DNA of 63,869 nt, filler included, from Deltaproteobacteria bacterium (GTDB lineage Bacteria > JACQOV01): NCBI GenBank assembly GCA_016202395.1. It is 8 parts of 8 records of this genome, joined end to end, with 100 filler letters (N's around TTAATTAATTAA, not from the genome) between each part and the next. Parts side by side here need not be neighbours in the genome. Positions count along the whole stretch, not along the records: positions 6,632 to 17,066 come from JACQOV010000001.1; 7 more parts are not named here. One strand, given 5' to 3'. The notes beneath the pieces were generated by a model, which ran no database searches, had not been told where the DNA came from, and saw only the letters and a list, made by a program, of their open reading frames with translations. A program made the position numbers and the translations under genes. Positions 4,612 through 22,298 of this stretch are shown here, piece after piece (positions within the stretch are counted from its first letter, which is position 1; each line of letters opens with the position of its first letter).

Positions 4612-4789
4612 TAATCACTAGGTCGCAGGTTCGAATCCTGCCCGGGGAGTTTTTGTTCCATGGCCCATCCGAAGCAAAATTGTTAAACCGATAGACTCTT
4701 GCATTTATCGCAAAGTAAGCTAAAGGGCTTAATTTTTACAACCTTTAGCTTATAAATAGGAGAAGAAGCTAATTTCCGAGACGTTTGCG

Positions 4790-5287: not shown

Positions 5288-5303
5288 TACGACGAAGTTT
5301 TTG

Positions 5304-6349: not shown

Positions 6350-6390
6350 AGGCTTATAATAGGACATATAATACCTATTGTCAACATAAA

Positions 6391-6442
6391 AATAGGACTT
6401 ATAAGTCTTATTCTACTCTATAAAAGAGGACTCAAAAGTCCT
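6391..6442. promoter_or_regulatory. Two palindromic operator-like boxes (AGGACT-N4-AGTCYT) next to a TTGACA-17-TATTAT promoter on the minus strand
   Basis: AATAGGACTTATAAGTCTTATT (6391-6412) and AGGACTCAAAAGTCCT (6427-6442). Confidence 0.55.
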
Positions 6443-6531
6443 ATAGTCGTAAACTACCCTCATGATTTTTTTAATCCTCACGCAACCAATGCCCTTCTGT
6501 GATCGATAGAGTAAGAGAAGAGCTAAAGCGC

Positions 6532-6631
6532 NNNNNNNNNNNNNNNNNNNNNNNNNNNNNNNNNNNNNNNNNNNNTTAATTAATTAANNNNNNNNNNNNN
6601 NNNNNNNNNNNNNNNNNNNNNNNNNNNNNNN
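6532..6631. other. Artificial contig spacer (also 17067-17166, 26371-26470, 46420-46519, 49477-49576, 59755-59854, 62436-62535)
   Basis: Identical 100-nt blocks of N with a central TTAATTAATTAA that stops all six frames. Confidence 0.99.
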
Positions 6632-7055
6632 GATCGATTACTTTAAGTCCTGAAAAACGATTAAAGTCTTCATCCGCTGTTAAGATTTGAAGAATCCCAT
6701 TTTCGATCAACAGCGCTGCAATATGAGCATCATGAAGAATATTCCCTTTGATGGAGGTCGCCTTTACCAAATCCGATAAGATGTGAGGATGCCGTTCTGC
6801 TTCCGATAAAAGGAGAATCATGGGAGATTGAAGTAAATTCTCAATGGCGGCCCAAGCGATTTCTGTTGGAGTCGGAGGATGGAAAACTTTAGGATGCGTT
6901 ACGACACGAAGGAATTCATAAATGCAAGGCCAGGGCAATACCCATGGATCATTTCCCTCGGCGAATTGAGTTAAAATCCGTTTTGCTTTTTGATGATGAG
7001 GGGCTTCCTCTCGATGAGCATAAATTAGGATATTCGTGTCAATAGCCGTAATCAT
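6632..7055 (-). CDS. vapC: VapC/PIN-domain toxin (3' end lost at contig edge)
   Basis: IDTNILIYA, EFLRVVT.P, HDAHIAA, TAD.DF.RF. Confidence 0.9.
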
Positions 7056-7291
7056 TTTTCATCCATGAGGTCAAAAAGGAAGTCGCGATCATCCAAGCGA
7101 ACCCCGGGTTGAATGGTCCCTCGATAAGTTTTCCATTGAAGACGGAATTTTCGTTGAGGGAAGGTGGCGCCTATTAAGGATTTACGAAGAAGGGCATTGA
7201 CCAATTCTTTCATGGTTTGTCCTTTCATCACCGCGCTCTCTTTAAGTTTTCGCGCGATATCATCCTCCAAAACCAAAGTCGTCCTTCTCAT
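7052..7291 (-). CDS. VapB-like antitoxin (ribbon-helix-helix)
   Basis: MRRTTL.L.DD...; overlaps the vapC start by ATGA. Confidence 0.8.
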   Translation of the reverse strand: MRRTTLVLEDDIARKLKESAVMKGQTMKELVNALLRKSLIGATFPQRKFRLQWKTYRGTIQPGVRLDDRDFLFDLMDEK

Positions 7292-7500
7292 ATGTTTAAG
7301 CATACATAACGCGCACATTTATGTCAAGGTGGCCTTTCTTACTTGACAAAGCGTATCGGCAAGGAATAGAACGATAACGGCATGTCCTTGGAATTATTCT
7401 TAAAACAGATGAAATTAGGGCCGATGGAGGGTTTTGTCTATCTGAATCTTCGATAGGGTGATTTGGAATCGTTTGTGAAATTTCGGATGAGACCCCGACG

Positions 7501-7902
7501 ATGAATCCTTCATACACCATTGTGGTGGCGGTGATTGAGGAGAATGGCGCGGTTTTCCTGGTGAAGAGACCTGCAGGGACCCATCTTCAAGGGTATTGGG
7601 AGTTTCCTGGAGGGAAAATAGAGGCTGGAGAAACACTCGAAAGGGCCCTTTTTCGAGAGGTTCGTGAGGAGGTGGGATGGGAGATCCTTGTGCTTGAAAA
7701 GATAGATGAAGTGGACTATAGTTACACAGACCGAGATGTTCATCTCCATTTTTATAGATGTGTTCGGAGGACACAAGAAGAGCCTGCCACTCCTTTAGAG
7801 CCTTTAGAATATGTTTGGGCGCCTATCCAAAAACTGTCACACTATAACATTCCTCCTGCCAATCAGAAGGTGGTTCAGAACTTAATCGAACGAGAAACCT
7901 AG
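7501..7902 (+). CDS. MutT-like NUDIX hydrolase
   Basis: WEFPGGKIE.GET...AL.REVREE Nudix box. Confidence 0.9.
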   Translation: MNPSYTIVVAVIEENGAVFLVKRPAGTHLQGYWEFPGGKIEAGETLERALFREVREEVGWEILVLEKIDEVDYSYTDRDVHLHFYRCVRRTQEEPATPLEPLEYVWAPIQKLSHYNIPPANQKVVQNLIERET

Positions 7903-9525
7903 ATGTCCACCTCTTGGGAACAATTGATTGATAATTTTTTAAAAGAACGATGGGAGCAATCTCCCGTCCTTGCTACAGCAGAGGGGATTCACAACTACGA
8001 TCATCAACTGGATTCATTGAATCCAGAGGCCATTGAAGAGAGGCTTCAAACCGTTCGTCGTCAGATTCTTGCGCTTGAAAAGGCGCGGCCTGTCGATCCA
8101 GACGAACAGATCGATCGAGAGGCTGTGCTGGGGGAGTGCCGCTCTGAGCAGCTGGAGTTGGAGCGGATCCAGCCTTGGCGTTCAGACCCCTCCGTTGCCA
8201 TCAACATCGGTTTGCAGGCGATCTATCTTTTAAGAGTTCGGAGTTTTGCTCCGATGGAAGAACGCGCAGAGTCGATCCTCTCCCGTTTGGAACAGTTTCC
8301 TCGGCTCCTTCAGGAAGGGCAGGCCGCCCTCGACCGGCCTGTGCCTGTCTTTTTAAAAGTGGCGGAGGAGGTTCTTCAAGGGGCGAAGCATTTTTTGGAC
8401 GACACCGCTGAAGAGTTGGGGCGCCAGCTCCCTCATTTGCAGAAGATCTTTCGAACCACAACGGATCGTGTCGTCTCTGTCTTGAATCAATACGATCATT
8501 TTCTGAAAGCGGGTGTGCAGCCCGCCTCCAAGGATCGTTTTGCCATTGGCGTTGAGGCCTTCCAGGGACTTCTTCAACATCGTCATCATCTTTCGTTAAC
8601 GCCGGAAGAGCTTGTCCAGATTGGAGAAGAGACGGCAAAGGGGGTCGAGGGAGAGCTCGCTCGACTGGCCAAAGCGATTGAGCCGCGATCCACCTGGAAG
8701 AAAATCATTGCGAAATTTAAGCAGGAACATCCTTCATCCAAAGAATTGGTGGAGGTCTATCGAAAAGAGATGGAGCGGGCGCGGGATTTTTGTCGCGATC
8801 GAAATCTGATTAGCTTTCCGAAAGTGGAATCGCTCCAGATTGTTCCGACCCCTGAGTTTGAGCGGCCGACGAGCCCTTACGCTGCTCTGATGTCTCCAGC
8901 CCCTTTTGAAAAAGATCAAACCAGTTACTTCTACGTCACTCCTGTGGAGGACTCCATGAGCCCTGAGGAGCAGGAAGAGAGGCTTCAGGGGCATTCGTTC
9001 ACGGGGCTTCCGGTGACCGCTTTGCACGAGGCCTATCCCGGACATCATTTGCAGCTTACGGTTGCTAACCAGCTCCCTTCGCGCGTTCGTCGTGTGATTG
9101 GGACCTCGGTTTTGTGGGAAGGTTGGGCCCTTTACTGCGAGGAGATGATGTATGAAGAGGGTTTTTACGCCGATCCGCGAGTGAGGCTGTATCAACTGAA
9201 GGATCTTTTATGGCGAGCTTGCCGTGTGATGATCGATGTGGGGCTTCATACGCAGGGATGGAGCGTGGAGAGGGCGGTTCAACTTCTGGTCGATCGAGCG
9301 GCTCTGGAGCCGGCCAATGCGCGTTGCGAGGTGTGGCGTTATTGCGGCACACCGACACAGCCGATGAGTTATTTGATCGGTCGTCGAGAGATTCTGGCGC
9401 TCCGCGAAGAGGTTCGAAAAAAGGAAGGAAAGGATTTTTCGCTCAAACGTTTTCATGATCGGTTGCTTTCGTTCGGAAGTTTTTCTCCGGCGTTAACCCG
9501 AAAATATTGGAATAAATTATGTTAA
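7903..9525 (+). CDS. DUF885 family protein (putative metallopeptidase)
   Basis: HEAYPGHHLQ, EGWALY.E, P.Q..SY..G. Confidence 0.9.
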   Translation: MSTSWEQLIDNFLKERWEQSPVLATAEGIHNYDHQLDSLNPEAIEERLQTVRRQILALEKARPVDPDEQIDREAVLGECRSEQLELERIQPWRSDPSVAINIGLQAIYLLRVRSFAPMEERAESILSRLEQFPRLLQEGQAALDRPVPVFLKVAEEVLQGAKHFLDDTAEELGRQLPHLQKIFRTTTDRVVSVLNQYDHFLKAGVQPASKDRFAIGVEAFQGLLQHRHHLSLTPEELVQIGEETAKGVEGELARLAKAIEPRSTWKKIIAKFKQEHPSSKELVEVYRKEMERARDFCRDRNLISFPKVESLQIVPTPEFERPTSPYAALMSPAPFEKDQTSYFYVTPVEDSMSPEEQEERLQGHSFTGLPVTALHEAYPGHHLQLTVANQLPSRVRRVIGTSVLWEGWALYCEEMMYEEGFYADPRVRLYQLKDLLWRACRVMIDVGLHTQGWSVERAVQLLVDRAALEPANARCEVWRYCGTPTQPMSYLIGRREILALREEVRKKEGKDFSLKRFHDRLLSFGSFSPALTRKYWNKLC

Positions 9526-10208
9526 AAGCGGTTATTTTGGATTGTGATGGGGTGATTGCCGACACCGAGCCGGTTCATCTCCGAGCTTTCCAAAAAATTT
9601 TGGATGAAGAGGGGATTGAACTCCTGGAGGAAGATTATTATCGAGAATACATCGGATTTAGCGACCGCGATTGTTTCTCGGCGGTTCTCTCTTTGAACGA
9701 TCGTGAGGTGGATACGCAAGGACTCCAAGATCTTCTTCAAAGGAAAGCGGTTTATTACGACGAATATGTGAAAGATTTTCTTAGGGTCTATCCCGGTGTC
9801 AAAGAATTTGTGGAGCAGGCTGCCGAAAAGTATTTATTAGCCGTTGTTTCGGGCGCTTTGAAGCCCGAGGTGGAATTTATCCTCGACAAGGCCGAGATTC
9901 GCTCTCACATCCCGGTGGTCATTGCGGCGGAGGATGTCGCGAAAGGCAAACCCGACCCCGAAGGTTATCTGAAGGCCTTCGAGACCCTTAAAAAGGGCTC
10001 GCAAAATGGGCTCGAGGCCAGGCAGTGTGTCGCTTTTGAGGATACTGCCATAGGCATTGAGGCCGTTTTGGCCGCAGGAATGAGATGCGTGGGGGTGGCG
10101 CATACCCTTTCTAAAGAAATCCTCTCGAAAGCCACTTGGGTGGTTTCAAACATGGCGGATATCAATATCAAAAAGTTAGAGCGCCTTTACCAATTAGGGC
10201 ATCCATAG
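9519..10208 (+). CDS. HAD-family phosphatase
   Basis: DCDGVIADTE, KPDPEGY, FEDT..G. Confidence 0.9.
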   Translation: MLKAVILDCDGVIADTEPVHLRAFQKILDEEGIELLEEDYYREYIGFSDRDCFSAVLSLNDREVDTQGLQDLLQRKAVYYDEYVKDFLRVYPGVKEFVEQAAEKYLLAVVSGALKPEVEFILDKAEIRSHIPVVIAAEDVAKGKPDPEGYLKAFETLKKGSQNGLEARQCVAFEDTAIGIEAVLAAGMRCVGVAHTLSKEILSKATWVVSNMADINIKKLERLYQLGHP

Positions 10209-10502
10209 ATGCTTCACAGGATGCCCTTCCATAATATGTTTCTGAACAATCTCTTTCACATCTTCTTCATTTCGAACCGTGTACCAAACTCCTTCCGGGT
10301 AGACCACCACTGAAGGCCCTTGGGCGCATTGATCGAGACAGCCGGCTTTGTTGGCCCGAACGCTCCCTTCCAGCCCCGCTTTTTTGAGTTCCTCCTTAAA
10401 AAGAGCGTGAATTTTTAGAGAGCCTTTGGCAAGGCAGCAGCCTCTGGGATCCTCCGGAGATCTTTCGTTGGTGCAAACGAAAATGTGGCGCTTCAATTTC
10501 AT
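10194..10502 (-). CDS. Thioredoxin-like [2Fe-2S] ferredoxin
   Basis: HIFVC...GCC...GCLDQC..GP.VVVYPEGVWY. Confidence 0.9.
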   Translation of the reverse strand: MKLKRHIFVCTNERSPEDPRGCCLAKGSLKIHALFKEELKKAGLEGSVRANKAGCLDQCAQGPSVVVYPEGVWYTVRNEEDVKEIVQKHIMEGHPVKHLWMP

Positions 10503-10517
10503 CGTACGATCCTTATC

Positions 10518-12068
10518 TTAAATCACGCGCTGAAACTGTGAAAGTGGGAGCTTCCACACCGGGATGCCGCAGAAGTGTTCTCCTTCAGGGCATTTAGGGC
10601 GAATCCCCGCAAGATGGCGGTGGCCGCACGGTGGCAGAAGATAGTTTCCAATGATCGGTTCAATCTTTGCAATCTGCTCCGCTTCATCGAGAGAGGCCCT
10701 CCAGATCTCCTCTTGAGCATTAAAACAAAGGCGCATGGCGTGTTTGTGATGAAGATTGAGAAGATCCGAGGACTCCGTAAACCGAATCGCGGCGGCATTC
10801 GGTAGAAGGTAAAGCACAAACTCCATCGGCACACCCCGTTTTTTAAGTTCTCCCATGTTTTCCCAGCTTCTCTCCATCACTTCCTGATACTCTTTGAGAA
10901 TTTTATCCTCTATTTGAATTAGCGCCGGTGTGATGTAATCGGGCTCTTCCGTCCAATGGGCCTCTAAACAGGGGCGCGAGGCCGGAGTCATTCGGTGCCG
11001 CTGGTCCTGAGAATCGGCCGTGTGGCTCAGTTTTTTCTGGAATGTGTAGCTGGCATGAAATAAAGATCGAGAGATTTTGGAAAGTGTTGTCAGATTTAGA
11101 TTTTCGCCAAGCAATTTATTTTGCCTCGGGTCCAGAGCCCACCGAATCGCCGTGGCATTATCTAGGCTGGAAGCCGGTCTTCCTAAAACCTCGCGGACGG
11201 CGTCCGCCACCAATTGTTCGTTATTCGATTTCCAGCCGGTGAGTTTCGAGACCCTTCCCCCCAGACCTCGATCGAATTCTTCTAAAAAAGGACGAGAGGT
11301 TGATGCGGGGCCGTTGGAGCGCTCTTTAAAAAATGGGTATTCCGGCGTCTCTTCAAGGGGGATCGGTTCCTCTAAAATAGTTTTGTACATCGGATCGATT
11401 TTGAGAAGCTCGTCAATCATCTTTCCAACCACAATCTGTTGCTCCATCGGGGTATCCAACTGCTGGCAAAGGCGCCAGTATCGGAGAAGCGTGATCCCGC
11501 TCACCGTGTGGTACAGGTGAGCAAACGTGGCTACGGGAACCGCATAGCGAGCCACTTCCTGGGCTTTTTTCTTGACTTCTTTGTGGAAACTTTCTCGCTC
11601 TCGTGAAAAACGTTTGGCATATTCGCTTTCGACGATCGGTATCAGTCGCTCTGTCAGTTCATGATAGGCCCTCATTTGGCATTCTGCGGTTTGAGTGTAG
11701 ATCTCGAGCGCTTGTCCCTGGAGAGGAGGGATGGCGTAGAGGCCGGTTTTAATCGGCACATAGCGTTGCGAAACCTGCTCGCTATTATAAAAGGGATGGG
11801 AGTGTAGAAACGACCAGATGAATTGTCGTGAAATGTTAGACATCGAAAATTCGAAATGGGCGTGTTGCAGGGTGGTGTGATGCCCCGCGCGGTAGAGACT
11901 TTTTGCGAGTTCCTCGGTTCGTGGAAAAGGCTCGTCATCTCGCACCACCCCCTTGCCCGAGTAACACGTCCGCGCCGCAGCAATAAAATTCTTAAACGGT
12001 GTGGTGAAACTCTTTTCCAGCCGTATCTCCGGCTCCACCGAAAAAAACTTTTGTAAGGTTTGGGCCAT
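10518..12068 (-). CDS. thyX: FAD-dependent thymidylate synthase, tandem two-domain ThyX type
   Basis: GHHT..QH, SQRY and QRHR motifs spread over two Thy1-like halves; 516 aa. Confidence 0.8.
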   Translation of the reverse strand: MAQTLQKFFSVEPEIRLEKSFTTPFKNFIAAARTCYSGKGVVRDDEPFPRTEELAKSLYRAGHHTTLQHAHFEFSMSNISRQFIWSFLHSHPFYNSEQVSQRYVPIKTGLYAIPPLQGQALEIYTQTAECQMRAYHELTERLIPIVESEYAKRFSRERESFHKEVKKKAQEVARYAVPVATFAHLYHTVSGITLLRYWRLCQQLDTPMEQQIVVGKMIDELLKIDPMYKTILEEPIPLEETPEYPFFKERSNGPASTSRPFLEEFDRGLGGRVSKLTGWKSNNEQLVADAVREVLGRPASSLDNATAIRWALDPRQNKLLGENLNLTTLSKISRSLFHASYTFQKKLSHTADSQDQRHRMTPASRPCLEAHWTEEPDYITPALIQIEDKILKEYQEVMERSWENMGELKKRGVPMEFVLYLLPNAAAIRFTESSDLLNLHHKHAMRLCFNAQEEIWRASLDEAEQIAKIEPIIGNYLLPPCGHRHLAGIRPKCPEGEHFCGIPVWKLPLSQFQRVI

Positions 12069-12121
12069 AAGAACCGTTTGATTATAACATAAGAAGAGGG
12101 TAAACGCTGGATCAGACTTAT

Positions 12122-12269
12122 TAGCAGGTTGTTGACAAATCCTTCTCTCGCAAGAAAATTGTCATGCCCGCGAAAGCGGGCATCCAGTAACATATTGAAA
12201 AGACTGGATTCCCGTTTTCACGGGAATGACGGCAAAAAGCCTGAGAATTAGTTAGTCAACAAACTGTTA
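12122..12269. repeat. MITE-like element with 15-bp imperfect terminal inverted repeats enclosing a GTCATNCCCG REP pair
   Basis: TAGCAGGTTGTTGAC ... GTCAACAAACTGTTA; inner GTCATGCCCGCGAAAGCGGGCATCCAG / CTGGATTCCCG...GGGAATGAC (12161-12230). Confidence 0.7.
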
Positions 12270-12665
12270 GGCTAAAGCGACGATGCCGGATCGGTGAATT
12301 CGTTCATCCACGGTTAAAACTCGGAGCCCATGACATCGAGCGGTAGCCACGATCAATTGATCTGCAGGATCCTTGTGGAAGTGGGGGCCTAAACGGCTGC
12401 TTTCAATAACGATTCGCGCAGAGAGGGGGATCATCCAGATCCCTGGGTCTTCTTCGAGTTCACCAAACCACTCGTCTAAAGAGAATTCGGGTCGAATCCG
12501 TCCGATCTCAGCCAGTTTTGCAATCTCCCACAGTGAGATAATCGAGACGGCTAAGCCCTCTTTCAGTTCTTCCGATTGAATTTTTTGAGCCATCTCAGGG
12601 GTAAGATCGGGCGCATCAAGATACCACCAAAGCAATACATGGGTATCCAGTAGTGGGGGGGGCAT
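12267..12665 (-). CDS. VapC/PIN-domain toxin
   Basis: LLDTHVLLW, SLWEI, HKDPADQLIVATA; TGATG overlap with the antitoxin. Confidence 0.9.
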   Translation of the reverse strand: MPPPLLDTHVLLWWYLDAPDLTPEMAQKIQSEELKEGLAVSIISLWEIAKLAEIGRIRPEFSLDEWFGELEEDPGIWMIPLSARIVIESSRLGPHFHKDPADQLIVATARCHGLRVLTVDERIHRSGIVALA

Positions 12666-12931
12666 CAGGAGCTTGCCTCCCAACTGGAGGCCGATGACCA
12701 ATGGATGATATCTCCTTTAAGGGTCGCCAACCCTTTTAGGGCTCCTCGGTGGCTCCCTCGAACTCTCCCTATCGGGATGACCCGAGCCACAGGCTCCGAT
12801 TTTTTGGTGATAATCCACTCCTTCCCTTTCCTACGGGTTTCCTCCAAGAGTTTTAAGCAACGGGCCTTAAATTCGCTCACTCCAATGGTTTCTTGATGTT
12901 GGATCGCTGCGGAACCTCGCTTTGTCATCAT
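12665..12931 (-). CDS. Phd/YefM-family antitoxin
   Basis: I..SEFKA.CL.LL......ITK...PVA. Confidence 0.88.
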   Translation of the reverse strand: MMTKRGSAAIQHQETIGVSEFKARCLKLLEETRRKGKEWIITKKSEPVARVIPIGRVRGSHRGALKGLATLKGDIIHWSSASSWEASS

Positions 12932-12987
12932 AGAATCCAGGATAGCAAAGACCTATTGATTAGTCAAGTGGTCAAAATGGTGAAATC

Positions 12988-13064
12988 TGGGGTCAGTTTT
13001 AAGTATTTAAGTAACGATTCAGAGGATGGGGTCAGCGTTACTTAAATACTTAAAACTGACCCCA
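12988..13064. repeat. Perfect 29-bp inverted repeat (GGGGTC-type REP)
   Basis: TGGGGTCAGTTTTAAGTATTTAAGTAACG / CGTTACTTAAATACTTAAAACTGACCCCA with a 19-nt spacer. Confidence 0.9.
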
Positions 13065-13137
13065 TCCCCTGTTAAGTTCCCTTGACAGGGTTTTCTAGTT
13101 CCTCTATCTATTACAATCGGTTTTATGGGCTAGGGGG

Positions 13138-14253
13138 GTGAGCCTCATGGGGCTTCAAAGCGGTAAAAAAAAAGGGGCCTTCTTCGTTGGTATCGTTGTG
13201 TTGAGCTACAGCCTCTCGGAGGCGGGGGTCACCTACCTTCACTCGGACCATCTTAACTCCTCCGTCATTCACACCGATTCTCTCGGTCGGGCCGTTGAGG
13301 TTCAATCCTTTACCCCTTTTGGGGAAGGAGGGGAGGGGTACACCGATCAGGAGTACGATTCCTCGGCAGACCTGCAATCCAACCACGCTCGGTATTACGA
13401 TCCTGTTCTTTCCCAGTTTGTGAGTGTCGATCCCGTTCAAGGGAATCTGCCTTACGCTTACGCCAACAACAACCCCGTCATTTTCGTAGACCCCGATGGG
13501 AACAACCCTTTGCTTATTCCTGTGGTCACGGGGATCGGATTTGTGGCCTTTGACTACGGGATGGCGAAGTGGACAGGGGAAGATGTTTGGTATACGAAAG
13601 GAGATGCGGCGGCCGCTTTCTTCACAGGAGCGCTGATGGGGTTTGGAGGGATGGGAATCGTGGCGTTATCGACCCGCTTGGGACTTTCAGGTGTGGGAGC
13701 AGCTGTTTTTCAAGGGGGGGCTAACTACGTCAATATTACGGTCAATAGGGCTGCCAGAAATATGGTGTATCGTGGAGAGAGACCTACAGAGGCTTTAGTA
13801 GAGAGTGCCCTCTGGCCTGCCTATCTCGTTTTAGCCCCCGTGGATTTTGTGGCAGCGCTAGGGTCTTATGTGGGTCGATACCATTTAGGGCCCGCACTCG
13901 AATCTTGGGGGTTTGTGCTTGACGATCCGGATGAGGATGTCCCTTCCATAGAAAACCTGATCGCGCAGTATCACGGCTCTTATCAAGCCGGTCGATTCCC
14001 TTTTGGAGATTTGACAGGTCGCAACCCTTTGCTTAAGCGTTTAGATCGGCTTGCCCATTTTCATCAGCGTTTGAGCGGTTCTCAAAAGGAGTTAACGTCG
14101 ATTTTGGATGGGTTGCGCAAAGGGGAGGTTGGGGAGTTATCAAGGGAAGATCAGATCGCTTTAGAAGAGGACATTCAACAGAGACTGGAAGGGATCGATT
14201 TTTTGATGGGGCAGATACAGCAGGATGTGACGAAGATCACTCATGAACTCTGA
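13138..14253 (+). CDS. Signal peptide + Rhs repeat-associated core + hydrophobic/coiled-coil C-terminal domain (mini-Rhs 1)
   Basis: SEA|GVTYLHSDHL, PFGE, ARYYDP, NNPVIFVDPDG. Confidence 0.85.
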   Translation: MSLMGLQSGKKKGAFFVGIVVLSYSLSEAGVTYLHSDHLNSSVIHTDSLGRAVEVQSFTPFGEGGEGYTDQEYDSSADLQSNHARYYDPVLSQFVSVDPVQGNLPYAYANNNPVIFVDPDGNNPLLIPVVTGIGFVAFDYGMAKWTGEDVWYTKGDAAAAFFTGALMGFGGMGIVALSTRLGLSGVGAAVFQGGANYVNITVNRAARNMVYRGERPTEALVESALWPAYLVLAPVDFVAALGSYVGRYHLGPALESWGFVLDDPDEDVPSIENLIAQYHGSYQAGRFPFGDLTGRNPLLKRLDRLAHFHQRLSGSQKELTSILDGLRKGEVGELSREDQIALEEDIQQRLEGIDFLMGQIQQDVTKITHEL

Positions 14254-14299
14254 ACAACAAGATGATGTGAAATTTGGGGTCAGTTTTATAGCTAGGGGG

Positions 14300-15370
14300 G
14301 TGAGCCTCATGGGGCTTCAAAGCGGTAAAAAAAAGGGGGCCTTCATTGTTGGTATCATTGTTAGTATCATTGTGTTGAGCTACAGCCTCTCGGAGGCGGG
14401 GGTCACCTACCTTCACTCGGACCCTCTCAACTCCCCTCTGATTGAAACCAATGAGGTCGGTTGGGTCGTTGGGGTTCAATCCTTTACCCCTTTTGGGGAG
14501 GGAGGGGAGGGGTACGTCGGTCAGGAGTACGATTCCTCGGCAGACCTGCAATCCAACCACGCTCGGTATTACGACCCCGTTCTCTCCCAGTTTGTGAGTG
14601 TCGATCCCGTTCAAGGGAATCTGCCCTACGCTTACGCCAACAACAGCCCTATCGTTTTCATCGATCCGAATGGGCGCGATCCAGAGGAGCCTGGTGTCAG
14701 CAGTATCGATGTCGACATCAATGATTGGTTCCTCACGCCGGCGATGCGCGAGAAAGTGGAATCGTTTATACTGGAAAACCATCGATGGCCCGATGATGAG
14801 GAATTTTCCCAGATGAAGGATTTCCACGCCCTTGCGCAGACTCTGGTGGGGCTTTTGGCGGTGTGGCAAGTTTCGAAAGCTACGAAGGCTTTTGGAATGT
14901 CTCGCAAGCTTCAAGCGGCAGACATACAACGCATAAGAGATGTTTTTCGGGAAGTCGGAACCCTCGCTGAAACGATACGACGGACCGGATTCAGTGAGGG
15001 TACGGTACGGCAATACATTAGATCAGCGGGGATGAAGGCAAACAGAGTCGGGAGGTACCCCTCCATTACTAATGAGGAGGCCCTCTCTTTGAGAGAGAAA
15101 TATGCAGAATTGCAGTCTGTGTCGGCAGTGGCAAAGAAGACGGGACGCAGTCCTGTTACTGTCTGGGGATGTGTCATAGGGAAGATTGGCCCGGCGTTTT
15201 CAGAGGAGAAGATCAGCGCTATTCAGGCCGCGTACGCAGAGCTGAAGGATATTAACGAAGCGGCCAGACGCGTGGGCCTTCCCCCCAAGGCGGTTCGTCT
15301 GCATGTGGAGGATGCAGGAAAGGGAGTGGGCAGAAAAACATATGAGGACTTCGATGAATGGGATTTGTAA
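14300..15370 (+). CDS. Signal peptide + Rhs core + tandem HTH C-terminal region (mini-Rhs 2)
   Basis: 5' part nearly identical to mini-Rhs 1; NSPIVFIDPNG; three HTH-like units. Confidence 0.85.
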   Translation: MSLMGLQSGKKKGAFIVGIIVSIIVLSYSLSEAGVTYLHSDPLNSPLIETNEVGWVVGVQSFTPFGEGGEGYVGQEYDSSADLQSNHARYYDPVLSQFVSVDPVQGNLPYAYANNSPIVFIDPNGRDPEEPGVSSIDVDINDWFLTPAMREKVESFILENHRWPDDEEFSQMKDFHALAQTLVGLLAVWQVSKATKAFGMSRKLQAADIQRIRDVFREVGTLAETIRRTGFSEGTVRQYIRSAGMKANRVGRYPSITNEEALSLREKYAELQSVSAVAKKTGRSPVTVWGCVIGKIGPAFSEEKISAIQAAYAELKDINEAARRVGLPPKAVRLHVEDAGKGVGRKTYEDFDEWDL

Positions 15371-16463
15371 AAACCTTTTGGCCATAGCGTGTCTCCCGTT
15401 GTTTTGGGCGGGGGGAGTCCCTTCTCTTTGCGCTGCGGCGGCGCAGTTCTACCATCCCGATCATTTGGGTTCTGTAAATGTTAGCACCGATGAGGGCGGA
15501 GATCTTGGAGGGCTTTCCACCTACACCCCTTTTGGCGAAACTGTCATTGCGAGGGAGCGCAGCGACCGAAGCAATCTCCCAACCAACCATCTCTACACCC
15601 ACCAAGAACTGGACCGTGAATCCAGTCTCTACGATTACGGCGCTCGGTATTATGATCCCGCGCTTTCTCAATTTGTGAGCATCGATTTGGTTGAAGAAAA
15701 CCCCCCTTACGCCTATGCTTTCAACAATCCGATTATTTTCATTGATCCCGACGGCCGTGATCCGAAGATGTATAGTCCTGATATTTATCCGAGCGTTTTG
15801 GACTATCGCGCCGAGCATAACGGAGAGGACCCTCCTAATTCTCTGATTCAACAATGGCAAGAAGAGATTAGCCTCGAACGGGCGTTACCTGTTGTTCTCT
15901 TCGGCATGGTGGTTAAAAAAGGGGCGCGTCCCCATCCGAACCAGAAGGTGACCGATGAACAGGTTCAAGTGGCCTATCGAAGGACGCCGAACTCCTATGG
16001 GGTGGCGGCACAATTGGGGATTTCTCAACATACGGCCTGGCGCAGGTTAGCAAGTTTATTCGGGAAAGGTTACAGGCCTCGCGGCCAAGAGCCACGAACA
16101 GCCTTGGGCAAAGTTTATGAAGAGATCGCGGAGGCGGATGGGAATTTCAGCAAAGCGGCCAGAGAATTGGGTTATAAAAAAAGCGCTATCAGCTCACGAC
16201 TTGGAAACCAGAAAATGCTCGAGACGTTGAGAATACTGTTTCCCCCAGCTTCCCCATCGGCGAAGGGATTGGAGTGGGAACCCATACTTTCCGCTCTTAA
16301 GGAACAGCAGGGGAATGTTCGAGTGGTGGCCAGGCAATTTGAGGTCGACCCTGCAACGATTAGAGGTTGGATTGAAGCTCATTATAAGGGGGGACAGGAG
16401 CAGTTTCGCGTGGATTTTCCTCCCCGTCATGATTGGCGTTGGAGGAATCGAGATGCCAAATGA
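15354..16463 (+). CDS. Signal peptide + Rhs core + tandem Fis-like HTH C-terminal region (mini-Rhs 3)
   Basis: SD GAGGA before ATG 15354; AAA|QFYHPDHLGS, YGARYYDP, NNPIIFIDPDG; GNFSKAARELG and GNVRVVARQFEV. Confidence 0.85.
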   Translation: MNGICKNLLAIACLPLFWAGGVPSLCAAAAQFYHPDHLGSVNVSTDEGGDLGGLSTYTPFGETVIARERSDRSNLPTNHLYTHQELDRESSLYDYGARYYDPALSQFVSIDLVEENPPYAYAFNNPIIFIDPDGRDPKMYSPDIYPSVLDYRAEHNGEDPPNSLIQQWQEEISLERALPVVLFGMVVKKGARPHPNQKVTDEQVQVAYRRTPNSYGVAAQLGISQHTAWRRLASLFGKGYRPRGQEPRTALGKVYEEIAEADGNFSKAARELGYKKSAISSRLGNQKMLETLRILFPPASPSAKGLEWEPILSALKEQQGNVRVVARQFEVDPATIRGWIEAHYKGGQEQFRVDFPPRHDWRWRNRDAK

Positions 16464-16470
16464 ACGGGCC

Positions 16471-16653
16471 TACTAAGGAGTTCATAAGTATCTATACATC
16501 TTTCGGCGTCTTTTGGCCTGCGACTTCGTCAGGCTTCACAGAAAAAACCTCAACGTATCGCAGTGGATACGCCTCGGTTTTTTCTGCTCGCCTTCCTCGT
16601 CTCGGTTCAAAATCCACTCGAATTCTGTATAGATACTTATGAACTCCTTAGTA
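16471..16653. repeat. 183-bp palindromic MITE with 28-bp perfect terminal inverted repeats (RPE-like)
   Basis: TACTAAGGAGTTCATAAGTATCTATACA ... TGTATAGATACTTATGAACTCCTTAGTA; related cores at 26252-26370 and 46330-46419. Confidence 0.85.
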
Positions 16654-16714
16654 AGTATTTTGTATGGCTATACAAAACACTTGAATTTATTTTGTATTCC
16701 TGTATAATTTACCT

Positions 16715-17066
16715 ATGGCTCTGAAGTCTCGTTATTTGGTTCAAGCCGTTGTAGAGGACCTTCAGCAAGGCAAGATGGTCTTTTTAGGGGGACCCCGCCA
16801 AGTGGGTAAAACCACTTTTGCAACCAAGTTAGTTGCCCAAGGGTATCAGAGTCAGTATTACAATTGGGATCAAATATCCCAGCGGCGCCAGGCTTTAAAA
16901 GGTCTATGGCCAGCAGAAACAAAATTGATTATTTTGGATGAGTTTCACAAACATCCCAAATGGAAAACGTGGCTCAAGGGGGAATACGATACCTATAAAG
17001 ATCGATTTAAATTTATTTTGACGGGAAGCGCGCGATTAGATCTCTATCGTCGAGGAGGAGATTCCC
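16715..17066 (+). CDS. AAA+ ATPase (AAA_14/DUF4143 type), truncated at contig end
   Basis: GPRQVGKTT, IILDEFH, FILTGSA. Confidence 0.85.
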
Positions 17067-17177
17067 NNNNNNNNNNNNNNNNNNNNNNNNNNNNNNNNNN
17101 NNNNNNNNNNTTAATTAATTAANNNNNNNNNNNNNNNNNNNNNNNNNNNNNNNNNNNNNNNNNNNNAAATTTTTTTC

Positions 17178-17280
17178 TTGTTTGGCCTCGCGGGTGGCAT
17201 GGGGGGGGGGACCCCAAGGCGCGCGGACTGTGGAGCACGCCTGGGGTATGCCCCATGACAGGACCCACGAGGCCAAACAA
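17178..17280. repeat. Long GC-rich nested hairpin at contig edge
   Basis: TTGTTTGGCCTCG...CGAGGCCAAACAA enclosing CATGGGG/CCCCATG and ACCCCA/TGGGGT stems. Confidence 0.6.
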
Positions 17281-17288
17281 CTACATTC

Positions 17289-18203
17289 TCAATCATGCTT
17301 TCCTCCAGCCATCATTCGATACGAATGCAAAATCGCCGGAAAGATCGCATCTAGCGATTCTGCGGTCCCCTTCGATGATCCTGGCAGATTCACGATCAGC
17401 ATCCCCCCCTTCAGCCCCGCTCTTCCTCGAGAGAGCATCGAATAGGGGGTCCTTTGTTGACCGAAGGAACGGGCCGCCTCCATAATCCCTGGAACCTCTC
17501 GATCCAGGATCCCTTCCGTGGCCTCCACCGTGACGTCCCTGGGACCTAACCCGGTGCCCCCTGTTGTTACAACTAAAGAAAAATCCTTTTTGTGGAAATC
17601 GAGCAACGCTTGCTGAATCTTCTCTTTTTCATCCGGAAGAATCAGATAATCCACACCGGAAATGCCAAATTTTTCTAATCGCTCTTTGATGATTTTTCCA
17701 GATCGATCTTCCCTTTTCCCTGCAAAAGTTCCATCCGAGGTCACAATCACGGCCGCTTTAAACCCTTTAGGAAGCATCTCTTGAAAACTCGACTTTCCTC
17801 CTTCCTTTTTCAGAACTTTGACATCGGTGATCTCCATTTCAGCGCTCAAAGGCTTGAGCATATCAAAAATAGTTGTCGCCGCAATCTGAGCCGCAACAAG
17901 CGCTTCCATCTCAATCCCAGTCTTCCCCACCGAGGTGACCTCGCTTGTGATTCGCGCGGAGTTTTCTTCAAGTTCGCAGTGAATCAAAACTTGATCGATC
18001 GGAATGGGATGACAATAAGGGATCAGCTCCCAGGTTCTCTTTGCAGCAAGCACTCCTGCAGCACGGGCAATCTCCAGGGCGTCCCCTTTGGGACCACTCT
18101 TAGAGCGAAGAGCCTCCACAAGCTGTGGAGTTAAACGTAAAACGGCCTGCGCCTTCGCCGTGCGTAATGTTGAGATTTTATGAGCTGTTGAAAACATATT
18201 CAC
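17289..18203 (-). CDS. moaC: Bifunctional MoaC-MogA/MoaB molybdenum cofactor biosynthesis protein
   Basis: LIPYCHPI and KTGIEMEAL (MoaC); TTGGTGLGPRDVT and NLPGS (MogA/MoaB). Confidence 0.93.
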   Translation of the reverse strand: MNMFSTAHKISTLRTAKAQAVLRLTPQLVEALRSKSGPKGDALEIARAAGVLAAKRTWELIPYCHPIPIDQVLIHCELEENSARITSEVTSVGKTGIEMEALVAAQIAATTIFDMLKPLSAEMEITDVKVLKKEGGKSSFQEMLPKGFKAAVIVTSDGTFAGKREDRSGKIIKERLEKFGISGVDYLILPDEKEKIQQALLDFHKKDFSLVVTTGGTGLGPRDVTVEATEGILDREVPGIMEAARSFGQQRTPYSMLSRGRAGLKGGMLIVNLPGSSKGTAESLDAIFPAILHSYRMMAGGKHD

Positions 18204-19192
18204 CCTCCCACAAAGCGGATCTTCGGAAGTTCCTCTGGATTCTTAGTCGTAATTGGATAAGTCATCCCATGCCCCGCGGGTTTCGACCGCACGGCTTGAA
18301 TGATGATCCTTTCAATCATTTCGTCTACAGGCTCTGCACCCCGAAGCCACGGTTTCAGTTCGACCTCGGCATTTGAAAAGAGACACGACCGCAATTTCCC
18401 ATCTGCGGTTAAACGCAGACGAGAACAGCTGTCACAGAAAGGCTCCGTCAGTGAGGCAATGAATCCGACATTCCCCTTTCCATTCTCAATCCGATAAGAT
18501 TCCGCAACCTCTTGACCACGAGGTATTGGCGCCAATGTAAAATTCTCTTTCAAGAGATCCCGGACCTCCTTTATCGGGAAAACCCACTCGGGACGCCAAC
18601 CGGTCCCGCACAGAGGCATAAACTCGATGAATCGAACCTCAATCGAACTATTTTTGGCCAACCCCCCAAAACGAAGGATCTCTTTTTCATTGATCCCCTT
18701 CATAATGACAACATTGATCTTCACTTTGAGGTCCGCCGTAAGCGCCTGTTCAATCCCCTCCCATACGTCCTCAAATTTGGAACATTTCGTAAGCTTCGAA
18801 AATTGAGTGTGATCCAAACTATCTAAACTGATATTGATCCGTTGCAAACCCGCATCTTTCAACGGTTGGGCCAATTTCGAAAGGAAAAAGCCATTCGTTG
18901 TCAGTGCCAAATCTTTCAACTTGGGAAGCCCCGCGAGTTGTTCTACCAATTCGACAACATTTTTTCGAAGAAGCGGCTCCCCGCCGGTGATACGAAGACG
19001 ACGTCCACCTAGTTTCAGAAAGATCCTAGCGACTCGCGCAATCTCTTCGAAGGTGAGGATCTCCTCCCGCGGAAGTGTAGGAATCCCCTCCGGAGGCATG
19101 CAGTAGATGCAACGGAAGTTACAACGATCGGTCACTGAAATACGGAGATAGTCAATCGTGCGACCGAACGAATCGGTAAGTATAGAAGACAT
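18200..19192 (-). CDS. moaA: GTP 3',8-cyclase
   Basis: YLRISVTDRCNFRC.YC radical SAM motif, FC..C.R.R, C-terminal GG. Confidence 0.97.
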   Translation of the reverse strand: MSSILTDSFGRTIDYLRISVTDRCNFRCIYCMPPEGIPTLPREEILTFEEIARVARIFLKLGGRRLRITGGEPLLRKNVVELVEQLAGLPKLKDLALTTNGFFLSKLAQPLKDAGLQRINISLDSLDHTQFSKLTKCSKFEDVWEGIEQALTADLKVKINVVIMKGINEKEILRFGGLAKNSSIEVRFIEFMPLCGTGWRPEWVFPIKEVRDLLKENFTLAPIPRGQEVAESYRIENGKGNVGFIASLTEPFCDSCSRLRLTADGKLRSCLFSNAEVELKPWLRGAEPVDEMIERIIIQAVRSKPAGHGMTYPITTKNPEELPKIRFVGG

Positions 19193-19198
19193 CGCGAT

Positions 19199-19384
19199 CC
19201 CCTTTCCAATTCATTTTGATGGGGACACGATACTTTGATCTGGGGACACGATACTTAATTTAGAATTAAGTATCGTGTCCCCAGATCAAATCCCCAGATC
19301 AAAAATCGGGAGGCAGAGCCGTTTCCAACTCCACCCATCGGCTTCCCCTTCCTAGGCGGCCCCTTAGAAAGAGAAGCTCAAGGT
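19199..19384 (-). promoter_or_regulatory. Moco/Wco RNA motif (riboswitch candidate) with a REP insertion
   Basis: Minus strand GAGCTTC..CTAAGGG..GAAGCC-GATGGGTGGAGTTGGAAACGGCTCTGCCTCCCG...TTGGAAAGGGG directly before the moaA ATG. Confidence 0.75.
19213..19306. repeat. GGGGACAC-type REP cluster containing a perfect 27-bp inverted repeat
   Basis: 19234-19260 pairs with 19264-19290; related element at 33376-33424. Confidence 0.85.
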
Positions 19385-19435
19385 TCTAATGCGCTGAAAC
19401 ATAGTCCAAGAAGCGAGTAACCTCCATGATAAGGA

Positions 19436-19789
19436 TCAAGTTGAAACATGATTTGCATCAGGACATTTACTAAGGACAATGTCTCCATTTTCTACACACA
19501 CATCATAAACCTGGACACTCTCCCCCTTTTCGCTCCCAACGCCGGTCCGAAATTCAAATTTCCGGGCGTGATAAGGACAGATCACATGATGATTATCGAT
19601 AATCCCCTCACAAAGTGGGGCATTGCGATGAGGACAACGATTTTGGAGCGCAAAAAGGCCTCCTGAACGGGGCCGAAAAACTGCGATCTCTTCTTTGCCG
19701 ACAACGAAACAGAAACCTTGACCCAGAGGAATCTTTTCAACGGAACCCAGATTCACCGATCGGTTCACAAGTTTGTTCTTCTCAACCAT
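19436..19789 (-). CDS. nirD: Nitrite reductase small subunit (Rieske)
   Basis: NRCPH and CPYH Rieske motifs; follows nirB. Confidence 0.85.
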   Translation of the reverse strand: MVEKNKLVNRSVNLGSVEKIPLGQGFCFVVGKEEIAVFRPRSGGLFALQNRCPHRNAPLCEGIIDNHHVICPYHARKFEFRTGVGSEKGESVQVYDVCVENGDIVLSKCPDANHVST

Positions 19790-22298
19790 GATGGACAGCC
19801 TCCTTTAAAACAGGAATCCACTCGGGACCTTTGAATTGCGCGGGATCGGCAGGAAGATCGGCCTCCTCCCTCCAAGGATCTTTGTAGCTTTGCACCGACG
19901 CTTCGATGGAGGTATCCAGTCGATTACAAATTCCCAATTCATCTTCAATAAGGACCGCTTTGAGTTGACCGATCCCGATCCGTTCGGCAAAGCCGTAGGT
20001 CCGTTCCATATATTTTGCATGTTCTCGGTAATATTGGATGAACCTTCCAACATACTTCAGCACCTCCTCATGAGTATCGACCGTACATAAAAGATCCCCC
20101 TTACGCACAGTGCCCCCCGCCGCTCCCCCAACATAGATCTCCCACTTCCCTCCCTCAATAGCAACGACCCCAACGTCTTTTACATACGCCTCGGAGCAGT
20201 TGCGTGGGCAACCGGCCGTCGCCATCTTGATTTTATGGGGAGACTCGATCCCTTGGTACCGGCGTTCAATCTCTTGTGCAAGTCGGATCGAATCCCCGAG
20301 GCCATAGCGACAAAAGTCGGTTCCAACACAACTCTTGACCGTTCGAACCGCCTTTGTGTAGGCATGGCCACTCGGGATGCCCAACTCCTTCCATACCTTG
20401 GGTAGGTCTTCCTTCTGAATTCCGAGAAGATCGATCCTTTGGCCTCCGGTGATCTTTACCATCGGAACCTTGTACTTTTTAGCGACCGTTCCGATTCGAA
20501 TCAGCTCCTCCGCAGAGGTGACTCCACCATAAATCCGCGGAACAACTGAAAAGGTTCTGTTCCTTTGGATATTGGCATGCACACGATCATTAATAAACCG
20601 AGCATCCCGTTCATCCTCATACTCTTCATTCCAAATCGATTTCAGAAGTGAAGCCAACCCCGCTTTGCTCTCGGCATGCTCTTTGCCACCGGCCAGCTTA
20701 CGAAATATCGCGCTGACCGACTTCAAACCCTTCTCCTGAATCGCCGCAATCAACTCCGATTTCTCCAACGGGACTCCTGGAACGTAGTAATGCTCACTCG
20801 GATTCGATACGATCTCTCCGGCATAGGCTCGAATCAGTTGAGCAATGACCATCTTACAGGAACCGCATCCCGTGCCGGCTTTGGTGCATTTGCCGATCTG
20901 TGCAACACTCGTGCAATTCTCTGTTCGGATCCTATCCCGAATCTCCCCTTTCGAAACCCCGTTACAGTTACAGATTTGGAGACTGTCCGGCATCTCGAGC
21001 ACATCGGTGAGTGAGGAAACCTCCGGCACCCCAAACAAAAGCTCGGATCGGTTATCGGAGACCTTCCTTTCCTCTTTGAAAGTCTGCATCAGGGTGTCGC
21101 CGACTTGAACATCACCCAAAAGAATCGCTCCAATCAGTTTATCGTTTCGTATCAAAAGCTTTTGATAGATACCCCGCTTCGGCTCCCGGTAAGTCACCAC
21201 CTCACCTGCGGGGTCGAAAGATTCGGTCTGTCCCATCGAAACGAGATCGACCCCCATTACTTTGAGTTTCGTCCCCAGCTTCGATCCAGTGTATTTGGCT
21301 TTTGGGTCCGCCTCCGTCATCACATCGGCCAAAACCTCTGCCTGTTCCCAGATCGGACCGACCAAACCGTAAATTTGCCCACGGTGTTCTACACACTCCC
21401 CCAAAGCAAAGATCTCAGGGTCGTTAGTTCGCATCTGGTCGTTACAGACAATCCCCCTTTCAACTGTCAATCCCGAAGCCTTTGCGATCTCTGTAACCGG
21501 GCGGATGCCGGCGCTGACAACGACCATATCAGTCTCTAGCGGCTCCCCTTCTTTAAAAATCAACCTCTGAATCAAACCGTTTTCTCTTTCGATGCGTGTA
21601 GTGATCTTTCCACAAAAGACCGCAATCCCCATCGCCTCAATCGCCGATCGAAGGAGACGCCCCCCTTTGGCATCGAGTTGCGCTGGCATCAACTGGGGAG
21701 CGGCTTCCAGGACTGTGACGTGAACATGATGGGTCATCAACCCCCGAGCCGCTTCGAGCCCCAGGAGCCCCCCGCCGATGACGGCCGCCTTTTTACAACC
21801 CTTCGCATACTCTTCAATCTGCGCACAATCGTCCAATGTCCGGAATAGAAAAGCGCCGGGACCGCCATACCCCTCCACTGGAGGAACAAAAGGGCGAGAC
21901 CCTGTGGCGATAATGACCGAGTCGTAAGGCACTTCAACAGTGGCTGCGCCGTTCAAAGGTGGGTTTTCCGCAGCATAAGGGGAATCGTTTTTGTTGAGAG
22001 ACCTCCCGACAACGACCTTCTTTTCTCGATCGATCTCGATTGCCTTGACCCCTGCATGCAGAGTAATCCCGTTCTCTTCATACCAGGAAAGCGGGTTTAT
22101 AAAGATATCGGTCGGTGTTTCCGTTCCGTTGAGTACGTTGGAAAGGAGAATTCGGTTGTAGTTGCCGTACGGCTCGGCGCCAAACATCGTGATCTCGAAT
22201 TTTTTGGCATCTCTTTTGAGAATCTCTTCAACCACACGAGCGCCGGCCATGCCGTTCCCGATGACAACGAGTCTTTTTCCTCGATTCATTTTGGACAT
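19782..22298 (-). CDS. nirB: NAD(P)H nitrite reductase large subunit
   Basis: GNGMAG, YNRILLS, CNCN..GTGCGSC, CVG..FC and GCPRNC siroheme motifs. Confidence 0.96.
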   Translation of the reverse strand: MSKMNRGKRLVVIGNGMAGARVVEEILKRDAKKFEITMFGAEPYGNYNRILLSNVLNGTETPTDIFINPLSWYEENGITLHAGVKAIEIDREKKVVVGRSLNKNDSPYAAENPPLNGAATVEVPYDSVIIATGSRPFVPPVEGYGGPGAFLFRTLDDCAQIEEYAKGCKKAAVIGGGLLGLEAARGLMTHHVHVTVLEAAPQLMPAQLDAKGGRLLRSAIEAMGIAVFCGKITTRIERENGLIQRLIFKEGEPLETDMVVVSAGIRPVTEIAKASGLTVERGIVCNDQMRTNDPEIFALGECVEHRGQIYGLVGPIWEQAEVLADVMTEADPKAKYTGSKLGTKLKVMGVDLVSMGQTESFDPAGEVVTYREPKRGIYQKLLIRNDKLIGAILLGDVQVGDTLMQTFKEERKVSDNRSELLFGVPEVSSLTDVLEMPDSLQICNCNGVSKGEIRDRIRTENCTSVAQIGKCTKAGTGCGSCKMVIAQLIRAYAGEIVSNPSEHYYVPGVPLEKSELIAAIQEKGLKSVSAIFRKLAGGKEHAESKAGLASLLKSIWNEEYEDERDARFINDRVHANIQRNRTFSVVPRIYGGVTSAEELIRIGTVAKKYKVPMVKITGGQRIDLLGIQKEDLPKVWKELGIPSGHAYTKAVRTVKSCVGTDFCRYGLGDSIRLAQEIERRYQGIESPHKIKMATAGCPRNCSEAYVKDVGVVAIEGGKWEIYVGGAAGGTVRKGDLLCTVDTHEEVLKYVGRFIQYYREHAKYMERTYGFAERIGIGQLKAVLIEDELGICNRLDTSIEASVQSYKDPWREEADLPADPAQFKGPEWIPVLKEAVHHG

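Follow-up and report, generated by a model that had tools for sequence, protein, structure and literature searches.

Enzymes and pore formers are the known cargo of Rhs and Tc cocoons, in which the subunit bearing the cargo normally builds half of the shell. Orphan cassettes made of a C-terminal (rhs-CT) part and an immunity gene sit downstream of rhs genes. In the survey of Tc clusters published as PMC7861908, 97.9% of the hypervariable regions of TcC are reported to be 201-400 amino acids (aa) long and 99.8% to be under 40 kDa. A toxin domain with a helix-turn-helix (HTH) fold, Tox-HTH, is tabulated for polymorphic toxins by Zhang et al. (2012, PMC3482391), where it accompanies FilH repeats, not RHS, and is given no immunity family. 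This paper describes three tandem genes for short Rhs proteins, here called mini-Rhs, in a stretch of 63,869 nucleotides (the window) from a Deltaproteobacteria bacterium (GCA_016202395.1). The window consists of 8 contigs joined by N spacers, all from one 1.9-Mb, 108-contig genome, and the trio lies on contig C2 (10.4 kb, window 6632-17066). In genes 2 and 3 the cargo part consists of a helical linker with three HTH units behind it, and is not an enzyme.

Genes 1-3 occupy the plus strand at 13147-16463 with gaps of 55 and -29 bp, and no immunity gene is found directly downstream within the trio. The same DNA is present in four groundwater-metagenome runs, all from one study that may include the source sample and with no RNA run listed among them, and the junctions between genes 1 and 2 and between genes 2 and 3 are spanned by contigs from two of these runs. 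Each protein begins with a hydrophobic segment that has basic residues before it and small residues after it (19-residue Kyte-Doolittle values of 1.56, 2.21 and 1.85 in genes 1, 2 and 3). The best 11-residue window of the gene 2 signal peptide reaches 3.43 and ends 11 aa before the core. All three proteins match the Rhs-associated core profile TIGR03696 (Rhs_assc_core) with 57.9, 56.2 and 66.0 bits against a cut-off of 32.5. In an alignment of the gene 3 core with the end of TcdB2-TccC3, both Asp match those in 'SSDP ... DPDG' of TccC3; the best sequence match of this core among solved structures is mosquito SGS4 (E 5.5e-13), and when the gene 3 model was compared with the PDB by Foldseek, the top matches for the N-terminal part were Rhs cores. 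The two Asp are presumably the catalytic pair, and PDB titles name the variants TccC3-D651A and Tse15 D1369N/D1391N. Neither RHS_repeat nor YD_repeat of Pfam and NCBIfam matches genes 2 and 3, so there is no YD shell in the same polypeptide, and only about 100 residues separate the signal peptide from DPxG.

A first-pass annotation of this DNA had described genes 2 and 3 as Rhs proteins with tandem HTH domains behind a short hydrophobic segment. Its start at 14690 did hit the C-terminal region, but it falls just inside that of gene 2, and the genes themselves extend as given in Table 1. The acidic linkers, hydrophobic stretches and basic patches that it quoted after DPxG are all present in the translations where it placed them, and HTH profile signal occurs at three separate places in both proteins, as it had proposed. 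It had seen no nuclease or deaminase motif; likewise, no toxin family was matched by Pfam or NCBIfam, and none appeared among the structure matches. The payloads behind DPxG are 228 aa in gene 2 and 232 aa in gene 3.

For gene 3, the HTH assignment is well supported. Its C-terminus passes the gathering scores of four Pfam families: HTH_1 (31.5 against 26.6, E 1.8e-7), HTH_Tnp_ISL3 (29.6 against 27.4), HTH_8 (24.7 against 22) and HTH_Tnp_1 (25.8 against 24.1). Since the HTH_1 match covers just 22 of 60 profile positions and no LysR effector domain is present, this match shows the motif only. A single-sequence AlphaFold2 run gave an unusable model (predicted local distance difference test, pLDDT, of 36), and a 60-row alignment was used instead. 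The resulting model contains three tri-helical units with pLDDT of 91-93, about 56 and 88-95, behind linker helices at residues 149-158 and 166-187 (pLDDT 71-87 over residues 141-180, down to 37 after 181). Fold matches of the C-terminal part include Tn3 resolvase, Myb/SANT, GcrA, the DNA-binding domain of NtrC1, LysR domains and the paired HTHs of Mos1 and IstA; these are consistent with small HTH domains, and weak taken alone. In the ESM Atlas, only HTH families were returned by structure, with TM scores below 0.4, and there was no usable match by features. The fold searches on the gene 3 C-terminus, a kind of check that the first-pass annotation had suggested, returned DNA-binding HTH domains, all at low scores, and no enzyme or toxin fold.

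For gene 2, the same assignment is likely. Sub-cut-off Pfam HTH matches lie at residues 97-116, 143-164 and 181-213 of its C-terminus, with HTH_1 at 19.3 bits (cut-off 26.6) and no HTH_8 match in the Pfam scan. The ortholog P0068, which shares 53% identity over 98% of the C-terminus, passes HTH_1 (27.9 against 26.6) and has HTH matches at three positions. The first unit of gene 2 is also 43% identical over 37 aa to P0015, a stand-alone HTH protein of 324 aa with two copies of the three-HTH module. Homology between the payloads of genes 2 and 3 was considered and not retained, because hhalign against the gene 3 payload profile was not significant and BLASTP gave E 0.059. Taken together, the signal peptides, the intact autoprotease motif, the HTH folds and the lack of an enzyme fold would fit the first of the two options originally offered for these proteins, that of exported DNA-binding payloads.

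A profile of gene-3-type payloads searched against 1.84 billion representative proteins gave 63 matches at E <= 0.001, two of them this genome's own proteins, and beyond members of the mini-Rhs family the matches were only HTH-array proteins. When the 15 top matches were scanned, most turned out to consist of 4-8 Fis-type HTH units in tandem, and two of these proteins have signal peptides. The metagenome representatives P0006-P0013 are singletons of 534-833 aa with 4-8 or more tandem Fis-type HTH units; in P0008 and P0009 these follow signal peptides, in others glycine-rich hydrophobic N-terminal regions. One mini-Rhs protein, P0010, is an ortholog of gene 3 with 44% identity over 294 aa, and both P0010 and P0068 are annotated as separate short proteins on other metagenome contigs. 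Word-index searches with the payloads of gene 3 and P0010 returned only the query proteins, and a scan of the genome collection with P0068 reached nothing but the core of an Rhs protein (3281 aa) from a Brevinematales metagenome-assembled genome. In the genome that carries genes 1-3, a paralogous trio on contig C43 includes two gene-3-like HTH payloads; of 729 aligned bases, 126 are different between the two, and the changes fall about equally on the three codon positions (46, 45 and 35). The ratio of nonsynonymous to synonymous substitution rates (dN/dS) is 1.29 for these payloads and 0.25 for their cores. Random placement of 126 changes leaves the frame stop-free in 0.85% of trials (0.0085). 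That the frames stay open despite so many changes suggests that the frame is maintained while the protein sequence may vary freely or is driven to vary.

The trio belongs to a large family. TIGR03696 has 61 matches in this genome; among 30 other genomes, related to it at domain level only, matches were found in 6, with 1-7 in each. Sorting with our own profile gave 58 short frames (246-456 aa) and three large ones (2485, 3061 and 3192 aa), besides a fragment located at the end of a contig, and the mini-Rhs genes take about 3.5% of the genome DNA. All 58 mini-Rhs frames are open, and none of the 58 cores deviates at the two catalytic Asp columns or at the Gly of DPxG. A strongly hydrophobic 11-mer, often with an AxA motif, is present in 52 of 58 and ends a median of 10 aa before the core, so that the mature protein would begin at the first core strand. 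Shine-Dalgarno-like tetramers stand upstream of 21 of the 58 guessed starts and are not informative. Many paralog cores, for example at window 47880-48224 and L007 1295-1636, hold a recurring Pro/Ser-rich 'RGE.(R/W)GEG' insertion, seen at alignment columns of about 215-255 and absent from genes 1-3.

The payloads of the family are uniform in length (median 236 aa, interquartile range 219-249) and diverse in sequence. No Pfam match at E <= 0.01 is found in 55 of 58, which makes the mini-Rhs family a pool of unknown protein domains, and the three payloads with matches are all HTH. The isoelectric point (pI) is above 8 in only six, and three of these are gene 3 and the two HTH paralogs on C43. 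An all-against-all BLASTP comparison found only ten related payload pairs, including gene 1 with the first C43 gene (31% identity) and gene 3 with a C43 gene. The trios on C2 and C43 are therefore similar, with a hydrophobic payload followed by two HTH payloads. The C-terminus of gene 1 itself has several hydrophobic, glycine-rich segments (19-residue Kyte-Doolittle windows of 1.59-1.74), and no Pfam family was matched in it. Two further mini-Rhs genes are located on contig C5 at window 46521-49019, and their payloads match no Pfam family. Throughout the family, gaps between same-strand neighbours are at most 191 bp in 26 of 34 cases, a packing too tight to hold immunity genes, and the absence of immunity genes can thus be regarded as a family trait.

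Three loci of the genome, on contigs C28, C95 and C29, carry giant Rhs genes in tandem pairs. The first gene of each pair (2485-3192 aa) has a core and a very hydrophobic payload. Immediately before this core come a hydrophobic segment with basic residues and, after it, a segment resembling a signal peptide, as if a shell gene had been joined to a mini-Rhs gene. The second gene (1666-1832 aa) has a signal peptide and YD repeats, and no core. On C28 this coreless protein has the make-up of a TcB subunit (SpvB 89.7, TcdB_toxin_midN 25.4 and RHS_repeat 82.4 bits), and it aligns with its fused neighbour until about 30 residues before the neighbour's core, as the one of the three that was aligned. 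All three coreless proteins end in a hydrophobic segment and a basic cluster, with a run of Arg in two of them, a tail that resembles a C-terminal sorting signal. A rhombosortase was considered for this tail and rejected, because the generic rhomboid-like match was below cut-off and the profile also matches all 14 control genomes. Arrays of mini-Rhs genes begin within about 100 bp downstream of the coreless shells on C28 and C95. BamA is present in the genome, and no sheath or PAAR gene of a type VI secretion system was found in it at 89% completeness. A gene for a sigma-54-dependent activator (PDZ, GAF, AAA+, HTH_8; L029 2280-5123) lies directly upstream of the fused shell gene on C95 and may control that locus.

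The reading favoured here is that mini-Rhs proteins are minimal TcC-like subunits, plug and cargo in one, of a split Tc/Rhs cocoon exported by Sec, and that genes 2 and 3 equip it with HTH arrays. The mini-Rhs proteins would be exported via Sec, and the mature N-terminus would lie at the first core strand. The core would then complete, in trans, an equally Sec-exported TcB-like YD shell that ends exactly where a core should follow. The parallel would be TcC completing TcB, with the split point shifted to the core boundary. After the predicted protease had cut at DPxG, an HTH cargo of roughly 26 kDa would be free inside the cocoon, and with the cargo enclosed, an immunity gene would be unnecessary. 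Speculatively, the cargo may then be passed to another cell and bind nucleic acid there. A split at the core boundary would explain the lone core, the position of the mature N-terminus, the narrow cargo size and the absent immunity genes. In view of the departures from known Tc toxins in the size of TcC, the signal peptides and the lack of a translocator, and of a docking step that is only predicted, the full model is held at slightly less than an even chance.

Several observations weigh against this model. In known Tc toxins, TcB and TcC form their cocoon in the cytoplasm, and neither carries a signal peptide. No shell or TcB-type gene was found on the 10.4-kb contig that carries genes 1-3, and no TcA-like translocator (PF18276, PF03538) in the genome, a 108-contig metagenome bin that is 89% complete; both profiles were silent in the 14 control genomes too. 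Most of the payloads are acidic (pI below 6 in 47 of 58). The HTH matches of gene 2 are all slightly below the Pfam cut-offs (best HTH_23, 24.1 against 24.6), and homology of its payload to that of gene 3, beyond the common HTH units, is not demonstrable from the sequences. The second HTH unit of gene 3 is poorly modelled, and the structure-match scores are low, with no Foldseek match to the PDB at E <= 0.001 and VIA-align Z scores of at most 5.3. A dN/dS near 1 also fits relaxed constraint. Finally, 97.2% of TcC proteins are given as 851-1050 aa in PMC7861908, the mini-Rhs proteins being far shorter, and TcC normally makes up about half of the shell.

If the model is true, it reveals a new split point in the cocoon and a combinatorial way of loading it, HTH arrays extend the Rhs/Tc class to payloads that read DNA and are not enzymes, and a large polymorphic arsenal without immunity genes is explained. 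A more elaborate version appears doubtful: in it, the cocoon would be tethered to the surface, a few TcB-like shells would be closed by any of 58 interchangeable plugs, and the HTH arrays would be delivered to act on the DNA of other cells. This version would amount to a bacterial nucleomodulin-type cargo in a toxin cocoon with no need for an immunity gene. Should assembly in trans prove wrong, the family would still be an unusual expansion specific to its lineage, found in a genome that has only distant relatives among the 30 compared.

Among the other explanations, one is that mini-Rhs proteins are free, self-cleaving proteins of the periplasm or the medium. After Sec export, the core would cut without a shell, and the HTH array would act outside the cytoplasm, for example on extracellular DNA, or enter neighbouring cells. 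The signal peptides and intact Asp motifs agree with this, as do the lack of a shell gene near the trio and of a detectable translocator; moreover, secreted tandem-HTH proteins with signal peptides exist in metagenomes, namely P0008 and P0009. However, a core of 100 residues out of its shell context may neither fold nor cut, and the coreless TcB-like shells directly upstream of mini-Rhs arrays, together with the narrow payload sizes, are left unexplained. Free secretion is considered unlikely.

A second possibility is that the 58 short genes are silent orphan cassettes, a recombination reservoir from which C-termini are swapped into the three fused Rhs genes via the common core sequence, a role described for orphan rhs-CT modules. 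On this point the genome offers some suggestive features: 20 of the 58 mini-Rhs genes are on contigs carrying the large genes, the fused genes keep the same order of hydrophobic segment, core and C-terminus, and core DNA is 72-87% identical between paralogs with the match stopping near the DPxG site (86.9% over 396 nt for genes 1 and 2). Nevertheless, the genes have their own start codons and signal peptides at the regular distance from the core, and not one of the frames is broken. Orphan modules normally have immunity genes, and here there are none; in addition, P0068 and P0010 were annotated as independent short proteins elsewhere. Silent cassettes are rated as quite unlikely, yet they are compatible with the split cocoon, and the two readings do not exclude each other.

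The second option of the first-pass annotation was a type I membrane protein, that is, a tethered regulator whose signal peptide is removed, whose Rhs core lies in the periplasm and whose single membrane span leads to HTH units in the cytoplasm, where they act on the cell's own DNA. The charges are those expected from the positive-inside rule, acidic before and basic after the hydrophobic stretch in genes 2 and 3, P0068 and P0010. As a measure of a membrane span, the best 19-residue Kyte-Doolittle window behind DPxG was used, for which the usual threshold is about 1.6. P0068 reaches 1.71 at the same place as gene 2, whereas gene 2 itself scores 1.08, gene 3 1.06 and P0010 0.72. The stretch comprises residues 197-208 in gene 2 and 194-204 in gene 3, where it consists of only 11 apolar residues between Arg and Lys and forms the poorly predicted end of the linker helix in the model. 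The two gene-3-like paralogs on C43 have neither linker nor stretch. For gene 3, a membrane span is thus unsupported, its window and that of its ortholog being below the 1.85-2.21 of the signal peptides of genes 2 and 3; for gene 2, its own score speaks against the span and that of its ortholog for it. Furthermore, a cut at DPxG would fall outside the membrane, in the periplasm, and leave the HTH part tethered, and the other 54 family members carry unrelated, mostly acidic payloads. The membrane option had also been offered to explain the missing immunity genes, but their absence spans the whole family and is better explained by encapsulation of the TcB/TcC kind. Overall, membrane-tethered regulation is highly improbable.

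The idea that the HTH payload is no more than a functionless piece captured from the DNA-binding region of a transposase is barely credible. Weak NCBIfam matches to the N-termini of IS21, IS3 and IS481 (E 0.003-0.04, far below cut-offs), Mos1 and IstA among the fold matches and the near-neutral dN/dS point in this direction. Against it, three units and open frames persist in four paralogs and in two orthologs (44-53% identity), the catalytic part of a transposase was not found, and the three-unit module is doubled in the stand-alone P0015.

The coordinates of the trio and of the shell loci are collected in Table 1.

Table 1. Positions of the mini-Rhs trio, its parts and the giant shell loci; positions of genes 1-3 count along the window, those of the shell loci are listed with their contig and locus
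Feature	Position	Strand	Description
Gene 1	13147..14253	+	mini-Rhs: signal peptide, Rhs core, 247-aa C-terminus
Gene 2	14309..15370	+	mini-Rhs with HTH-array payload; 353 aa from MGLQSG start; open frame from 14243
Gene 2 Sec-type signal peptide	14309..14401	+	KKK n-region, hydrophobic core, SLSEAG c-region; window 2.21
Gene 2 Rhs-associated core	14402..14674	+	ends DPNG (14663-14674); predicted aspartyl autoprotease plug
Gene 2 acidic helical linker, hydrophobic stretch and basic patch	14675..14908	+	stretch 14831-14866
Gene 2 three HTH-like units	14909..15313	+	about 14909-15028, 15062-15178, 15194-15313
Gene 3	15342..16463	+	mini-Rhs with HTH-array payload; 373 aa from MRTSM start; 29-base overlap with gene 2 end
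Gene 3 signal peptide	15342..15443	+	19-residue window 1.85
Gene 3 Rhs-associated core	15438..15755	+	ends DPDG (15744-15755); 66.0 bits
Gene 3 linker helices, hydrophobic stretch and basic patch	15756..15953	+	stretch 15882-15914
Gene 3 three tri-helical HTH units	15954..16415	+	15954-16061, 16101-16202 (Fis-type motif), 16275-16415
Shell locus, C28 (L025)	29876-42414		two giant signal-peptide genes in tandem
Shell locus, C95 (L026)	5167-20305		two giant signal-peptide genes in tandem
Shell locus, C29 (L027)	1718-16224		two giant signal-peptide genes in tandem

The surroundings of the trio show some further features. A PIN-domain gene flanks it at window 12267-12701 on the minus strand (Pfam 47.5 bits), and a PIN-like open frame, judged by eye, flanks the paralogous trio on C43 at about L001 4081-4575 on the plus strand. 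At window 12169-12337 the sequencing depth is 53-1825 in the four runs, compared with about 5-10 on the flanks, suggesting a very high-copy repeat just upstream of the PIN gene, where a spurious frame reads as a 'RFRGHDN'-type peptide. Immediately after gene 3, an AAA_14 (+DUF4143) ATPase gene begins on the plus strand (window 16715-17066) and is cut by the contig end, and a complete copy of such a gene stands immediately before the shell locus on C29 (L027 172-1410). Beside the trio on C43, large multi-haem (CxxCH-rich) cytochrome frames were seen by eye on the minus strand of L001.

Compared with known systems, the mini-Rhs family is most similar to TcC. Both have an Rhs core with a two-Asp autoprotease motif, a hypervariable region of 200-400 aa, many paralogs (some far from a B gene) and no immunity genes. 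The mini-Rhs payloads (228 and 232 aa in genes 2 and 3) are within the 201-400 aa criterion reported in PMC7861908, as is the family median. B-type genes with SpvB, TcdB_midN and RHS repeats adjoin the sister arrays on C28 and C95, not genes 2 and 3. Unlike TcC proteins, genes 2 and 3 encode only 353 and 373 aa, with about 100 residues before the cut site. In addition, both partners have Sec signal peptides here, the shells end in a hydrophobic segment and a basic cluster, no TcA was found, and there are 58 copies. Orphan rhs-CT modules are likewise short genes that keep the end of the core and a new C-terminus, form arrays beside full-length genes and have DNA similarity ending near DPxG; the mini-Rhs genes differ in having their own starts and signal peptides and in lacking immunity genes, and the trio is not beside a large Rhs gene.

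Other resemblances concern the export or the cargo. Bacterial teneurin-like proteins, as described in PMC13018210, are also Sec-exported, surface-anchored YD shells enclosing a polymorphic C-terminal toxin, but each is a single polypeptide, its C-terminal domain measures about 15 kDa, and an immunity gene follows directly. The tandem Fis-type proteins P0006-P0013 share HTH_8-type units with a GN..AA..LG motif and, in some cases, signal peptides; they differ in having 5-8 or more near-identical repeats and no Rhs core. In the literature searched, neither mini-Rhs families with signal peptides nor HTH payloads on Rhs proteins were the subject of any paper, and the term 'Tox-HTH' occurred in PMC3482391 only. 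In the main text of the Tc survey (171 clusters), no hypervariable region is described as HTH or DNA-binding, and two supplementary files of the survey, including the S1 table, do not contain 'HTH', 'helix' or 'transcription' (PMC7861908). The first-pass annotation gave it as established that Rhs C-termini are usually enzymes or pore formers; broadly this holds, except that a Tox-HTH domain had already been listed for polymorphic toxins (PMC3482391). Tox-HTH has an HTH fold in the C-terminal toxin position as well; however, its table description, on which this comparison is based, gives one domain only, characterised by the motif RxxY, R, [ST], compared to three units here (PMC3482391). Set against Tox-HTH, the Tc survey and the teneurin-like proteins, an HTH payload on an Rhs core and a subunit that is plug and cargo together would both be new variants.

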